Shown: positions 5,701 to 63,205 of the stretch, piece by piece
Layout of the letters: each line of letters begins with the position of its first letter
Numbering within the stretch: the first letter of the stretch is position 1
NCBI GenBank assembly: GCA_951406725.2
Contig: OX597822.1
Coordinates: forward strand, 49,600,001-49,664,000
Origin: Octopus vulgaris
Lineage: Eukaryota
Direction: 5' to 3'
DNA: 64,000 bases
Notes under the pieces: generated by a model
Seen by the model: the letters and a program-made list of their open reading frames with translations, nothing else
Database searches by the model: none
Told to the model about the DNA's origin: nothing
Translations under genes and position numbers: made by a program

Positions 5701-6909
5701 TCGACTTAACTAACTTGCTTATACTTACATTTACTCCTCTATCGGCTCAGGTTTAAAGCTCTTCAGCACTTACTTTTGAAAAAGTCTTTGTTTTACAAAT
5801 ATAAATTTGAATTTTGCCGAGGTTAAATTTTTATTCATTTTCATGCATTTTTCATATTTAAATATAATATTATTGTTTCAAATTTATATATTTTTAAAAA
5901 TTTATATATTTATATTATATTTGATTATACTATATTATTTTCTTGTACAATTTTTTAATCTTAATATTCTACACATCAGACAGTTTTTAAATATATTTCT
6001 ATGCATATATCCGTTATGGTGTATATATGTATCTTGATCTGAATATATATATGTAGATTATATATCTATGTATATGTTCATTTGTATATTTGAATGTGTG
6101 TCTATAAGTCGGTTACTTTTGCACGTATGTATGTATTTATGTAGATATGTATGTCTTCTTATATGGGTTCATTTTATGTGTGCGTTTGTAAGCTTACAGA
6201 AGTATCTAACATTTGTTACATACTTTTAAGAACGCAAACTTCCATATCACTTTCTATCTCTTTCTATCTATTTTCACTTTCTCTTTCTTTTCTACTTTCT
6301 TTCATCACTTCTTTTTATTTCATTTTCTTTATCCTACCACTTATTATTCTCTGATTTTCATTTCGTTTTCTTTCTCTAGCTTGTATATTTGAAATACACA
6401 CGGAGAAGTATTATGTGCATGTATATATATGTATGTGGATACCTCCATATGCGTTTGTATATATATTTATGTTTTGCCTGCATTTGTTTGTATATGCATG
6501 TAGGCATGTATCAACGCTTGTAAGTTTAGTGTATATATATATGTATATATAGGTTTTGGGTATGTGTATGTTTTACTAATGTATACGTATGTTCATGATG
6601 TCAGTTCTTTGTAAATGTTTTTATTTGGAACGGACACATCGTTTTGCGTTATCTAGATTTAATATTTATTATCTTTACCATTAATTCATTTATCTTGGAG
6701 TACAGATTTTTTCCTTCTACTAAAGTTAATATTTGAGTTAAGGTTTTCTTCAATTTTTATATCATTTTAAATCGTAATTGTAATTTCATATAACCGGTTA
6801 TTGAAAAGACAGTTAGTTGGAAGAACCGATGAAACAAAACCGTTTTCAAATGAGTAACTAGGAAATTAATTGTACATTTATGCATATAATCGTATCTTGT
6901 TCCATTCTA

Positions 6910-6990
6910 AACAAAAACTGTCCCACGAATGGGAACTTGAAACTCTGAGTAACAGATTTTGTGATGCCTTTGCAACTTTATTAATAAAGT
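6910..6990 (+). ncRNA. Degenerate HHR/pLTR copy (CCGACGA family, cf. 49041)
   Basis: aaaaCTGT-cccacga...GAAA-CTCtGAG-TA-ACAG-atttt...aataaag. The core is mutated. Confidence 0.45.
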
Positions 6991-7032
6991 ATATATAAAT
7001 GTATATATGTATGTATATATATTTCTGAGTCC

Positions 7033-7155
7033 CTTTCTGTAGAAGAGCGTAGGCTCGAAACGTAAAATACTTTTTCTATTCCTGAGCGTTATACTAATAC
7101 ATCTGTTTGTTTTCTACACCACCTGCCTTCGTCTTTTGTTTTTTTCGTAAACTCT

Positions 7156-7196: not shown

Positions 7197-7202
<6 letters not shown>

Positions 7203-7755
7203 ATACTAGCCATCTCAATATGGCTAACCACTAGGGGTGGGTGTTACTGTAGCTTTTTAGCCCCAGGAGATCATCGTCTCCAGCTGGCTTTAGACACAAT
7301 TTCTGTGCCCTTATGATATTTGCAAAGGGAGGTCATCCCCTCTCGTAAACCTAAGTGATACGCATGGACTGCAGTTTCGAGATTATTGTCTCTTGTCAAC
7401 ACACGGTAATCACGGGTTTTCGATGAGGAGAGACCTGTTTGCGAATATCTATTTAATGTTTTTCACAGTAACCACTGTCACTGATTTCGAAAAACGGTTT
7501 GAAAGCAGTAATAAATCTCTGAACGCGATGCAAACAGTAAGCGTATCACTTAGGTTTACGAGAGGGGATGACCTCCCTTTGCAAATATCATAAGGGCACA
7601 GAAATTGTGTCTAAAGCCAGCTGGAGACGATGATCTCCTGGGGCTAAAAAGCTACAGTAACACCCACCCCTAGTAGTTAGCCATACTGAGATGGCTAGTA
7701 TACTTTACGTTGTCGAGCGCTTACTGTTTACATCTCGTTCAGAGAATTATTATTG

Positions 7756-7760
<5 letters not shown>
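7197..7760. mobile_element. Retrozyme-like HHR element, family A, inverted configuration, flanked by (TA)n
   Basis: 167-bp inverted arms at 7197-7363 and 7541-7707 with 2 mismatches seen. 7718-7760 repeats the reverse complement of about 7503-7543, implying a permuted monomer of ~357 nt. Confidence 0.75.
7361..7405 (-). ncRNA. Type I hammerhead ribozyme, U3-A8 core variant
   Basis: CGUGUG-UUGACAA-GAGA caauaa UCUC-GAAA-CUGCAG-UC/CAUGCG. Helix I 6 bp, helix II 4 bp, palindromic ACUGCAGU helix III, GUC site. Confidence 0.8.
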
Positions 7761-42127: not shown

Positions 42128-42130
<3 letters not shown>

Positions 42131-42385
42131 GGTTGTATACTGTCAATCTAACAAGAACGTGACAGTAGGGGGTACACCACCGTTATATAGCCCTAGGAGG
42201 CATCGAACGCCTCCTGACAGCTCGACACATTTTATCCTGTGTCCTTATATACACATACGAAGGGGAGACAAACACCACCAACTGCCGGAACTGCATCTAG
42301 GGACACCGTGTTTCAGGATCATTGTCCTTCATCGGCTTAGAGTAGCAGACACCGGTCAGCTGGCGATGTCTGTCTCGACTTCGTA
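42128..42385 (-). mobile_element. Retrozyme-like HHR element, family C (partial)
   Basis: HHR at 42296-42341, the shared structured motif at about 42180-42272, terminal hairpin UACUGUCA/UGACAGUA, then (TA)n. Confidence 0.7.
42296..42341 (-). ncRNA. Type I hammerhead ribozyme (CCGAUGA core)
   Basis: UCUAAG-CCGAUGA-AGGA caauga UCCU-GAAA-CAC g GUG-UC/CCUAGA. Confidence 0.75.
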
Positions 42386-42505
42386 TCTGTATATATCTAT
42401 AGTCTTATATATCTATATATATGTATCTATTACGTATCTATTATATATCTTATATATATGTATCTATATATCTATGTATACGAGAGATTTAGAAACTCAA
42501 TATTT

Positions 42506-42580
<75 letters not shown>

Positions 42581-42746
42581 GTGTATATGTATGTATGTAT
42601 ATATATGTATACTAGCAGGGGTTGCTCGGTATTAGATCCCAGGGGTTGCTCGGTATTAAAATTGCATAGCTTTGTCAAGCGATGGAGGGGATACACACAC
42701 AGTAACACGTATACATACACACACACATACATATAATATATATATA

Positions 42747-43061: not shown

Positions 43062-43180
43062 ATACCAGAGTAGTCACATAAATGCGAAACAAGGTGGGAA
43101 AATTAGTAGTCGAATACCAGAGGCAGAGTAATATGCTTTTTAAAATCCAGCAAAAATATCACAAGAACTGTTACTCAGAG

Positions 43181-43181
<1 letters not shown>
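43062..43181 (-). mobile_element. pLTR 3' tail (CCGACGA family), truncated at mariner junction
   Basis: Homologous to 48937-49052 (cataaatg.gaaacaa.gtgg..aataccag.gg.agagtaatatgcttt..ctgttactc.gagtt). Confidence 0.7.
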
Positions 43182-43907
<726 letters not shown>

Positions 43908-48936: not shown

Positions 48937-48938
<2 letters not shown>

Positions 48939-49090
48939 GGAGTAAACTCATAAATGTGAAACAATGTGGAAAAAAGAGTACTCAAATACCAGTGGTAGAG
49001 TAATATGCTTTATTTAAAGCAGCAGAAAATTCAACAAAACCTGTTACTCTGAGTTTCCCGTTGCCGTTCGTCGGACAGTTTTTGCTAGAA
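48937..49090 (-). mobile_element. pLTR with minimal HHR (49041-49078)
   Basis: aaaaCUGU-CCGACGA-ACG gcaa CGG-GAAA-CUC a GAG-UA/ACAG, followed by AAUAAA and a tail into (TA)n. Confidence 0.7.
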
Positions 49091-49175
49091 TGGAACCGAT
49101 ATGTCAATTCTATCCAGACTATTACAAACACTACACCTTAGTGTAGCTTTAAATAAAGTATATATATATATATAT

Positions 49176-50487
49176 CATAGCTCCTTCCCTGACCCTACCT
49201 CTCAACCTGGCTCGTTCCTCTGCTCCCGCCCACGTTGCCGCACTTGCCCTTACTTCTCCAACACCACCCTCCTCACTGGCACCCATCATCGACCCTTTCG
49301 CATCATCAACTCCTTCACCTGCACCTCCAGCAATATTATCTATTGCGTCTCTTGCTCTCTCTGCCATTCCCTGTACATCGGACAAACGGGACGCCGCTTG
49401 GCTGACCGGTTCGCGGAACACCTTCGTGACATCCACCTTGTCTCCGGTCACCGGTCTCACGCCATTTCCGCTCACCGGTCACTCCTTGCAACACCTGTCT
49501 GTGTTCGGTTTCTCCTTAAACAGAGGCCATCCGGATTCCCGTTTGTGCCGTGAACAGGAATTAATCTTCTCTCTTCGCTCTTATGCGCCATTTGGTCTCA
49601 ACTCTCCCCCATCCTCATCTACCCCCTCTCCCCCTCCTCATCTAACCTCCCCCGACCCCTACTTCTCTTCAGTCCTTCATCCTTTCACCCCTACTCCTCT
49701 TCCCTTCTTCCCTCTTTCTCCCTCCTTCTTCCCTCTTCCCCTCCTCTGCTCCCTCACTCCCCTTCTCTCCCTCCCCCTCTCCCTCTATCCTCCCACCTCC
49801 TCTCCCCTCCTCTTCTCCTCTCCTTCCTTCTCCCCCTTCTCTTCTCCTCTCCTTCCTTCTTGCCCCACCCCTTCCCCCTCCTCTTCTCCCCTTTCCTTCT
49901 CCCCTCTTCTCCCCTTTCCTTCCCCCCTCGTCTCCCCTTTCCTTCTCCCCTCTTCTCCCCTTTCCTTCTCCCCCCTCCCCTCCCCCTCCCCTCTCCCCCT
50001 CCCCTCCCCATCTTTTCCTCTCTCTACACTACACCATACGACTTTACACATCACATCATATATACATACACACGTCTAGACCTCTCATACGCACTAATAC
50101 TCTCTCATACACACACACACACACTCTTCTCATACACACACACACACACACACTCTTATGTTTGAGCGGGGTCATTCAACCCTATTATCTCCCCTAATTT
50201 CGCTCTTGCGTCTCATGTTTGATCTTTGACTTCTGGCCGAAATCAGATCGCCATGTTGATTCGCTAGCTTTTGCACGCATATTTTTTTCTCTCCTTCTTT
50301 CTGTGATTTTTTCTCTGTGTATCTTTCTGTTGAAGAGCGTAGGCTCGAAACGTTAAAGACTTGTTTCATTTATATTTCCTGAACGCCATACTAATACAAT
50401 TGTTTGTTTGTATTCCACCTGCCTTCGTCTTTTGTTTACTTCTGTAAACCTGCCTTCGTCTTTTGTCTATTTTCATAAAGCTTCCCG

Positions 50488-50488
<1 letters not shown>
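49176..50488 (+). mobile_element. PLE 3' end: Zn-binding linker + GIY-YIG endonuclease, polypyrimidine tract and HHR-like pLTR
   Basis: PGSFLCSRPRCRTCP..FTCTSSNIIYCVSCSLCHSLYIGQTGRRLADRFAEHLRDI..RLCREQELIFSLRSYAPFGLN. C/T tract at 49600-50030. HHR-like UCUUU-CUGUUGA-a-GAGC guag GCUC-GAAACGUU-AAAGA at 50322-50359. Confidence 0.85.
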
Positions 50489-50533
<45 letters not shown>

Positions 50534-50690
50534 CGCCATAATAATATGGCAGTCTATAAATAAGACTAAAGCTGTCGCTGATTAGCTCCAAGAGGCCATC
50601 GCCTCTAGCTAGCTATTTGACACACGAACCTGCGTCCATTACAACCTTCGAACAGGGGAGGTCAGCCGCTTCACCTTGCTAGTCAGACAT

Positions 50691-50731
50691 CTGCAGACAT
50701 GTTTCACGGTTGTTGCCCTTTATCAATGCAG
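50691..50731 (-). ncRNA. Type I hammerhead ribozyme, U3-A8 variant (downstream copy)
   Basis: CUGCA-UUGAUAA-AGGG caacaa CCGU-GAAA-CAUG-UC/UGCAG. One helix II mismatch. Confidence 0.75.
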
Positions 50732-51050
50732 TGTAGCCAGAACCAGCAGGTGTCGTTACTGACCGTCTGTTCGAAGATTTTATTTACCTAGTTACAGTGG
50801 AATACATTCACTTGTTTTCAATAATAGAAATATTAAAATTACTAAGTCTCTCTAAAGGAGATTACGGCAGCGTTACTGGGTATTAATATTTATCGCCATA
50901 CTAATATGGCAGTCTATAAATAAGACTAAAGCTGTCGCTGAATAGCTCCAAGAGGCCATCGCCTCTAGCTAGCTATTTGACACACGAACCTGCGTCCATT
51001 ACAACCTTCGAACAGGGGAGGTCAGTCGCTTCACCTTGCTAGTCAGACAT

Positions 51051-51091
51051 CTGCAGACATGTTTCAGGGTTGTTACCCTTTATCAATGCAG
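51051..51091 (-). ncRNA. Type I hammerhead ribozyme, U3-A8 variant (upstream copy)
   Basis: CUGCA-UUGAUAA-AGGGU aaca ACCCU-GAAA-CAUG-UC/UGCAG. Helices I and II are perfect; helix III is the palindrome ACAUGU. Confidence 0.85.
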
Positions 51092-51319
51092 CGTAGCCAG
51101 AACCAGCAGGTGTCGCTACTTACTAAACTTAATTCACTTGTTATTTCTTAGCTCAAACTTTTATTGCTATTTCTATTTCTAAATTTCCTAGCTATTTTTT
51201 AAATAATTACATTACTTTAGTTATATCTCGTTTACCACTCACTATACTTACTAAATTAACTCAATTGTTATTGCTTGGCTCTAACTTATATTGCTATTTC
51301 TATTTCTAAATTGCCTACG

Positions 51320-62696: not shown

Positions 62697-62822
62697 CTTT
62701 CTGTTGAAGAGCGAAGGCTCTAAATGTAAAAGAATTTCTCTTTCCTGAGCGTCAAACAAATAAATCTGCTTGTTGTTCATACACCTGGCTTCGTCTTTTG
62801 TTTTTCTGTAAGTTTCAACTAT
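62697..62822 (+). mobile_element. pLTR 3' end with decayed HHR-like motif
   Basis: ctttCTGTTGAaGAGCgaagGCTCtaaatgtaaaag with the tail as at 7033 and 50322. Confidence 0.6.
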
Positions 62823-62946
62823 ATTATTGATTCTTGTATATCTACTATTATTAGAATTCAAGAATTAATGTTGTGTGGTATTTGAAATACGTATATTTAT
62901 TTCTATATATGCACGTGCATCAGCTTCACCATGTTACTTCAAGCAA

Positions 62947-63200
62947 CCACAGACTAGTTTCGGAGTGTTTGCCCCTTAAAAATGTGGAGTAGCCGAACGC
63001 AGTAGGCGTCGCTGTTGACTGTGTTCGAAGGTGTATATATATTCAGTGGAAGCAGCCACTGATTTTCAAAAATAGAAATATAATTTCTAAATCCCCCTAA
63101 AGGAGAATACTGCAGAATAATGCTGGGCATCGCCAAGCTAACATAGCAGTCTAGAAATATAGGACGAATGCTGCCGTTGATTAGCTCCAAGAAGTCGTCG

Positions 63201-63205
<5 letters not shown>
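62947..63205 (-). mobile_element. Retrozyme-like element family B/D, diverged partial monomer with dead HHR core
   Basis: Colinear with 50691-50965. HHR at 62947-62987: CCACA-UUUUUAA-GGGG caaaca CUCC-GAAA-CUAG-UC/UGUGG. Confidence 0.7.

Follow-up and report, generated by a model that had tools for sequence, protein, structure and literature searches.

A covarying hairpin pair in a non-coding hammerhead repeat superfamily with copy ends resembling those of PLEs

Introduction

The closest described counterparts of the repeat studied here are the non-LTR retrozymes of metazoans. The accessible part of Cervera and de la Pena 2020 (PMC7229834) provides a sequence-level definition of the non-LTR retrozyme, reports mussel units of 350-390 bp, and names PLEs as no more than candidates for retrozyme copying. 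According to the available text of a recent preprint (bioRxiv 10.64898/2026.07.22.740005), the copying mechanism of retrozymes is still to be elucidated. For autonomous PLEs, the accessible sections of PMC11167929 describe the role of the C3-G8 pair of the hammerhead (HHR) and report that the PLE RT requires RNA downstream of the HHR. In vitro, it initiates at two internal sites in that region, which gives an optional genomic tail.

Here we analyze a pair of hairpins, H1 and H2, found downstream of an HHR in a repeat family. Like the metazoan retrozymes of PMC7229834, as far as its available text goes, the carriers are non-coding 354-370-bp units with one type I HHR; they range from monomers to long arrays, co-occur with PLEs, and form a highly self-paired predicted circle in which the HHR is free to fold. 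That text mentions neither a conserved, covarying part beyond the HHR nor mapped RT start sites; the present units have such a domain, their 3' ends fall at two fixed sites, and they are known from genome sequence alone. Like the pLTR and "tail" of EN+ PLEs (Poseidon PAc, in the accessible part of PMC11167929, and the Neptune type), they have two internal sites of 3' ends past the HHR, AT-rich or (TA)n targets, and tandem and inverted 5'-truncated copies. In contrast to those pLTRs as described in that source, the retrozyme has no ORF, has a long extended stem I, and has a tail of 50-60 nt rather than 30-40 nt; in addition, H1/H2 are missing from the pLTRs that we checked. Vertebrate retrozymes are likewise proposed to be non-autonomous users of the PLE machinery (bioRxiv 10.64898/2026.07.22.740005, available text). 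However, those match pLTRs by sequence, whereas here no matching autonomous pLTR is found and the link consists of insertion signatures.

Results

Hairpins H1 and H2 are real and occur far above chance

The window analyzed is a 64,000-nt stretch (49600001-49664000) of a 2.8-Gb, microsatellite-rich animal assembly. The hairpin 1 and bulged hairpin 2 described in the first-pass annotation are present at 7595-7645(+), 7259-7309(-), 50584-50637(-), 50944-50997(-), and 42189-42243(-). A partial copy had also been noted near 63170; the 3' half of the structure occurs there, at 63129-63203(-). A profile search returns exactly these six places in the window. Genome-wide, the exact hairpin-2 pattern has 11,069 matches versus 5 for the reversed pattern, and a second loop variant of hairpin 2 has 1,238 matches versus 0 for the control. 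An arbitrarily drawn sample of 400 kb yields 13 matches at E<=1e-3, concentrated in a small number of stretches, and reversed sequence gives 0. A pattern scan for the hairpins in metagenomes gives 0 matches. B-like sequence is present in contigs from four runs of four organisms, although these contigs are uninformative on expression, ends, and circles.

The focal copy, 7541-7759(+), belongs to family A and is a 5'-truncated inverted partner without HHR. It begins 3-4 nt past the HHR cut site, where it is joined to the inverted copy 7197-7543(-), and it ends at 3'-end site 2, followed by (TA)n. The copy opens with the 3' strand of the HHR's long stem I extension (7541-7593(+)); the partner strand is absent here, and the pairing is seen in complete copies. 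H1 (7595-7611(+)) and H2 (7615-7645(+)) follow, the latter consisting of an outer stem, a 2-nt 5' bulge, a C-G pair, a purine bulge, an inner stem, and a GAUG-containing loop. A predicted three-way branch (7654-7727(+)) is closed by pairing of 7654-7660 with 7721-7727; it contains H2b (about 7665-7678(+)) and H3 (7678-7697(+)), and 3'-end site 1 lies within its region (near 7706-7712(+)). Hairpin 4 (H4; 7733-7745(+)) is immediately 5' of site 2.

The inverted copy 7197-7543(-), also of family A, is an almost whole, circularly permuted monomer that stops at site 1 and is followed by (TA)n. It contains H1 (7293-7309(-)), H2 (7259-7289(-)), and a type I HHR core of the U3-A8 variant (7367-7399(-)), with a predicted cut between 7367 and 7366 and an upstream stem-I strand at 7400-7450(-). 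Family B is represented by a partial tandem with a period of 360 nt (50529-51123(-)), which has HHR cores at 51056-51086(-) and 50696-50726(-) and H1+H2 at 50944-50997(-) and 50584-50637(-), and which ends at site 1 before (TA)n. The family C copy (42128-42404(-); HHR core 42302-42335(-), H1 42224-42243(-), H2 42189-42222(-)) is without H2b and likewise stops at site 1, then (TA)n. A degenerate B-like copy (62923-63203(-)) has its start within H2 and extends across H3 and a decayed HHR.

The hairpins belong to a non-LTR retrozyme superfamily

All carriers are homologous along the whole 354-370-nt unit. Therefore, the hairpin structure is shared by descent in one superfamily: it is not a stand-alone motif but two helices of a larger conserved fold in a non-coding HHR repeat. 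The 20 tandem monomers, in 9 clusters, are each 354-370 nt long. The label "retrozyme-like" given to the HHR at first sight agrees with one type I HHR per non-coding unit and with the range from monomers to tandem arrays, and the unit falls within the sequence-level definition of a non-LTR retrozyme. The type I HHR core is parsed in 8 of 9 monomer representatives, with a C3-G8 or a compensated U3-A8 pair. Continuation into a PLE ORF is found in 0 of 150 domain-bearing loci, the near neighbors inspected being separate insertions; judged by PLE-ORF continuity in these 150 loci, an ORF or LTR body of its own is absent.

When folded as circles, the 9 monomer representatives are all predicted to be more stable than their shuffles (25 each), with z between -2.8 and -11.6, and z is lower on the HHR strand in 8 of the 9. 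The predicted fold is an HHR-tipped rod plus a multiloop with H1, H2, the three-way branch (H2b and H3), H4, and two further hairpins. This branched fold is shared by at least six lineages; H2b is absent from family C, which amplified nonetheless. Among the matches listed, a 10-unit array lies at C4:13621000-13624284(-) of the assembly (G000) and 6 units lie at C1:8133878-8135715(-), and these arrays are candidate source loci for multimeric transcripts. Another repeat family has captured part of the three-way branch of family A (H2b/H3), as seen at L132 1669-1731(-) and L149 3084-3134(-).

The HHR is flanked by a maintained ~60-bp stem

The structure had been placed downstream of every HHR. 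This is contradicted by three other minimal HHRs of the window that lack it (cores near 7037(+), 50327(+), and 62700(+)) and by the focal copy, which has no HHR upstream. All three minimal HHRs come from the 3' repeat of an autonomous C-rich PLE that is very abundant (14,519 first-look candidates), and the H1/H2 model finds no match on that repeat.

A UG.CUCCCYU...UAA string had been proposed as a separate 5' motif of the structure; it is instead the 3' strand of an extension of HHR stem I, with its partner upstream of the HHR. The extension spans ~60 bp, and the CUCCC run coincides with one of the internal loops of the rod. Pairing between the upstream and downstream flanks of the HHR is maintained in lineages that differ in sequence there. 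In a duplex test of cognate against non-cognate strands, the cognate is best in 4 of 4 among lineages A-D and in 5 of 9 over all rows, which include a mis-parsed B2, offset windows, and the related lineages A and I. In the same test the closing stem of the three-way branch clearly favors the cognate for C and B2 only.

H1 and H2 are maintained by compensatory change

Pairing and covariation are counted in an alignment of 28 representatives of subfamilies. H1 and H2 are kept in all 28, with 95.7% and 91.7% of pairs formed, respectively, versus 33-48% in slid controls. Two-sided changes occur in 13 of the 27 base pairs of the four helices, and the covariation score of the four-helix structure is reached by 0 of 500 shuffles. 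Because relatives inflate covariation counts, 13 disjoint tip pairs are compared; D is excluded as misaligned, the tree is made from the same columns, and independent compensatory events are counted from the tip pairs alone. For H1+H2, 3 of 4 double changes keep pairing versus 0.42 expected (P=0.0035, on only 4 events), and for H2b and H3 none of 4 does. The claim that the substitutions are compensatory is thus borne out for H1 and H2. H2 shows almost no variation in its bulge layout or in the AU of its loop.

G-U wobbles had been said to work on the HHR-sense strand only. A modest G-U strand bias is observed: there are 21 G-U versus 9 A-C cells over 27 representatives, but 4 versus 4 in the 9 young multi-copy ones. 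In 9 of 9 cases the HHR strand gives the more stable H1+H2 fold, the difference being 0.3-7.2 kcal/mol.

Lineages A-D share an identity of 0.65 in the HHR core, 0.56 in H1+H2, and 0.29-0.54 in other segments. H1+H2 are therefore the best-conserved part outside the HHR, by a small margin (0.56 versus 0.54 and 0.50 for two other segments). Deletions across H1/H2 are found in 0 of 577 cases versus 2 of 137 in a control stretch, a comparison without weight because both control cases are singletons. Helix probability is low in the single monomers B and B1 (for H2) and D (for H1); the B and B1 copies bear stem mutations, and the intact family B monomer of the window is predicted to fold both hairpins. 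Three candidate arrangements were rejected because both arms pair elsewhere in whole monomers: an HDV-like P3/L3, a GGGAG/CUCCC hairpin that includes a loop pseudoknot, and a stem closing off H1/H2. Tertiary contacts may nonetheless exist.

The structure matches none of the known RNA classes compared

The first-pass annotation found no fit to several RNA classes by eye, and the computed comparisons yield no match either. The nested double pseudoknot of HDV-like ribozymes (P1, P2, P3, P1.1 with catalytic C) is found in 0 of 8 monomers on either strand, by a descriptor of our own used without a positive control. ARAGORN returns 0 tRNAs, and the SECIS core RUGA-N11/12-AA-N18/27-GA is found in 0 of 8 monomers on the sense strand. 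Twister, pistol, hatchet, hairpin, and twister-sister ribozymes give no Rfam match at E<=10, in a search that also overlooked the HHR. For 11 loci and the family B tandem, Rfam gives no ribozyme or relevant family at that threshold, and the HHR in the same input was missed as well. On the window, Rfam returns microsatellite and miRNA noise and nothing on the element among the 150 of 175 matches listed. Features of a tRNA-derived SINE or a Pol III type 2 promoter are lacking: besides the ARAGORN result, a B-box is present in just 1 of 8 monomers, and all 8 contain T4+ runs.

Copies end at two fixed sites downstream of H2

Positions are numbered from the base following the HHR cut (+1), with site 1 at +160-182 and site 2 at +210-245. 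The 3' ends of 133 of 152 copies fall in these two sites, whose windows make up about 16% of the monomer, as do 22 of 24 at loci chosen without a DNA query; 5' ends fall in the same two windows in 26 of 152. The sites lie ~65 and ~115 nt past H2 (62-75 and 113-120 nt across lineages), and site 1 is nearer to H3 (11-17 nt) than to H2. (TA)n follows the 3' end in 17 of 42 (A), 32 of 47 (B), and 37 of 45 (C) copies, and precedes the 5' end in 2 of 41, 2 of 46, and 7 of 45, respectively. Both orientations are present at 60 of 107 loci, with overlapping loci counted separately.

Most copies cross the HHR cut site: 32 of 42 in A, 33 of 47 in B, and 37 of 45 in C. The loci of families B and C were picked by queries containing the HHR, which favors such copies; the family A query does not contain it. 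The template was therefore either a circle closed by ligation or a multimer left uncleaved, and not a linear monomer. Uncleaved multimers account for junction-spanning copies as well as circles do, and unprocessed RNA is predominant in vitro according to the accessible part of PMC11167929. In an intact Neptune-type PLE of the genome (L111), copies end at +73 after its HHR in 12 of 19 cases and at +113 in 5 of 19. The ends of the retrozyme thus carry the signature of PLE copying, with a PLE protein as the probable enzyme.

The autonomous PLEs examined lack H1 and H2

PLE candidates were scored for the best 150 of 6,136 and the best 150 of 14,519. Among these top-scoring PLE families, H1/H2 are found in none of 40 GIY-YIG loci and in none of 4 stretches taken from pLTRs of the most abundant PLE, and no unit stands directly after an RT/GIY-YIG ORF, as a pLTR would. 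H1/H2 are also absent from the intact PLE at L111 945-4590(+). This element has a 765-aa RT/GIY-YIG ORF, preceded by a 346-aa ORF with no Pfam match; its pLTR contains repeated CCAAT- and CRE-like boxes and one TATA-like box, and a 781-aa open frame is kept in about 15 of the listed copies of the type.

In the window, the C-rich PLE is represented by a 5'-truncated copy at 49197-50490(+), with a GIY-YIG remnant, a pyrimidine-rich 3' region, and a pLTR with a minimal HHR near 50327. This copy and the family B retrozyme lie back-to-back and share a single (TA)n tract. C-rich PLE copies elsewhere in the genome have open frames of up to 853 aa.

Discussion

The conservation of H1/H2 across families suggests selection on amplification, since the unit has no coding role. 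If a non-coding selfish unit is selected on amplification alone, the hairpins should affect how the unit is transcribed, how its RNA survives, or how it is reverse transcribed. We place docking of the RT or RNP first because the hairpins are positioned in the region that the PLE protein needs, because the lineages preserve their distance from each of the two start sites, and because H2 retains a specific bulge and loop. RT recognition was one of the functions suggested at the outset, and the two fixed 3'-end sites downstream lend it indirect support. We give an even chance to the proposal that H1/H2 are part of a platform, on the predicted circular RNA, to which a borrowed PLE RT binds for internally primed copying.

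The cycle would begin with transcription of the tandem arrays. The HHR, as predicted from its intact core with C3-G8 or U3-A8, would cut out monomers, and the ~60-bp extended stem I, its pairing kept by compensation, would hold the ends for ligation, as suggested by other retrozymes. On the resulting circle H1, H2, the three-way branch, and H4, all predicted and covarying, would be presented on the multiloop opposite the HHR. A PLE protein would then nick (TA)n and start cDNA ~65 or ~115 nt past H2, where copy ends are observed. Running across the cut site, the RT would yield the permuted monomers, multimers, and inverted truncated partners that are found in the genome.

Structured RNA near the RT start also recruits the enzyme in the 3' stem-loops of SINEs and LINEs and in the R2 3' UTR, in trans for non-autonomous elements. 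Unlike in these systems, initiation here is internal and the template is likely circular or multimeric. A stronger version of the docking proposal is that H1/H2 and the three-way branch form a dedicated RT-docking domain of a non-coding circle, one that captures a PLE enzyme whose own RNA lacks the domain and sets rolling-circle TPRT at two fixed sites, comparable to the protein-binding arms of telomerase RNA. We regard this version as speculative and would expect it to fail sooner than hold.

Several observations count against docking. No autonomous PLE examined carries H1/H2, so the RT of an autonomous PLE works without them. Site 1 is nearer to H3 than to H2, which weakens the reading, and the two sites are 50-60 nt apart in the retrozyme versus 40 nt in the intact PLE. 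H3 and H4 alone might position the RT, with H1/H2 serving the RNA phase by organizing the multiloop for compact folding, ligation, decay resistance, or the binding of a host protein able to silence the circle's HHR. Such a role is the leading alternative, though a doubtful one. It agrees with the folding of whole monomers as circles far beyond shuffles in 9 of 9 and with autonomous PLE ends that do without H1/H2, and the accessible part of PMC7229834 argues that the HHRs of animal circles need blocking other than self-pairing. However, a purely stabilizing stem should drift, yet the bulge layout and loop AU of H2 are nearly invariant.

That the units are 3' pLTR pieces of an unseen autonomous PLE, each left by a truncated insertion, is improbable. 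Their end signatures are indeed those of pLTR pieces, the GIY-YIG search covered the best 150 of each candidate set (6,136 and 14,519), and the available text of bioRxiv 10.64898/2026.07.22.740005 derives retrozymes from pLTRs. But what lies upstream of the HHR in the 20 tandem monomers and in the 10-unit C4 array is the previous monomer, not an ORF, and 0 of 150 domain loci are continuous with a PLE ORF.

We consider it equally improbable that the H1/H2 segment is conserved as DNA because an internal Pol II or degenerate Pol III promoter overlaps it, with the hairpins secondary. A non-autonomous unit needs some promoter, and the 5' arm of H2 in the A, I, and F types may resemble a tRNA A-box minus one base, which would favor this idea. 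The likeness is missing in C and D, and the compensatory changes indicate RNA pairing. The Pol III form of the internal promoter suggested initially is disfavored by 1-5 T4+ runs in each of 8 monomers, by the B-box in only 1 of 8, and by the lack of a tRNA. The other early suggestion, that H1/H2 and their neighbors are a second, hitherto undescribed ribozyme for cleavage or ligation, gains no support and is very improbable. Unpaired bases that are conserved in the bulge and loop of H2 would fit it, as would the lack of an Rfam match. But no ribozyme model matches at E<=10, in a search that also missed the HHR; the HDV-like descriptor finds nothing on either strand of the 8 monomers; invariant single-stranded bases do not cluster as in the HHR core; and 5' ends do not pile up at the hairpins.

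Retrozymes as a class are known. For this family, its covarying branched fold, and its two-site end signature we found no published description that would correspond: the accessible parts of PMC7229834, PMC11167929, PMC8557442, PMC4209133, and the 2026 preprint do not describe the family or the domain, although the supplement of PMC7229834 may show similar folds, and Repbase and Dfam lay outside the comparison. A high-copy family with the two-site initiation signature of PLEs in its genomic ends bears on how animal retrozymes copy. Because the end signature, a mutable covarying fold, and intact PLE proteins occur in the same genome, the in vitro assay already published allows a direct test of trans-mobilization. 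Were the domain to dock the RT, PLE-based insertion that starts from circular RNA would gain a compact handle.

The window contains further repeats. Solo pLTR pieces related to the C-rich PLE, with minimal HHR cores, lie at 7037-7155(+) and 62700-62820(+), and the former adjoins the family A copy across (TA)n. Short repeats at 6890-6995, 43065-43182, and 48937-49096 are mutually alike and flanked by (TA)n; they match an HHR-bearing 3' region in two further loci (L130 and L219) and are a further PLE-type end. A short duplicated GC-rich motif at 42615-42660(-) has a final CTAGT, which we take to resemble a Helitron 3' end.
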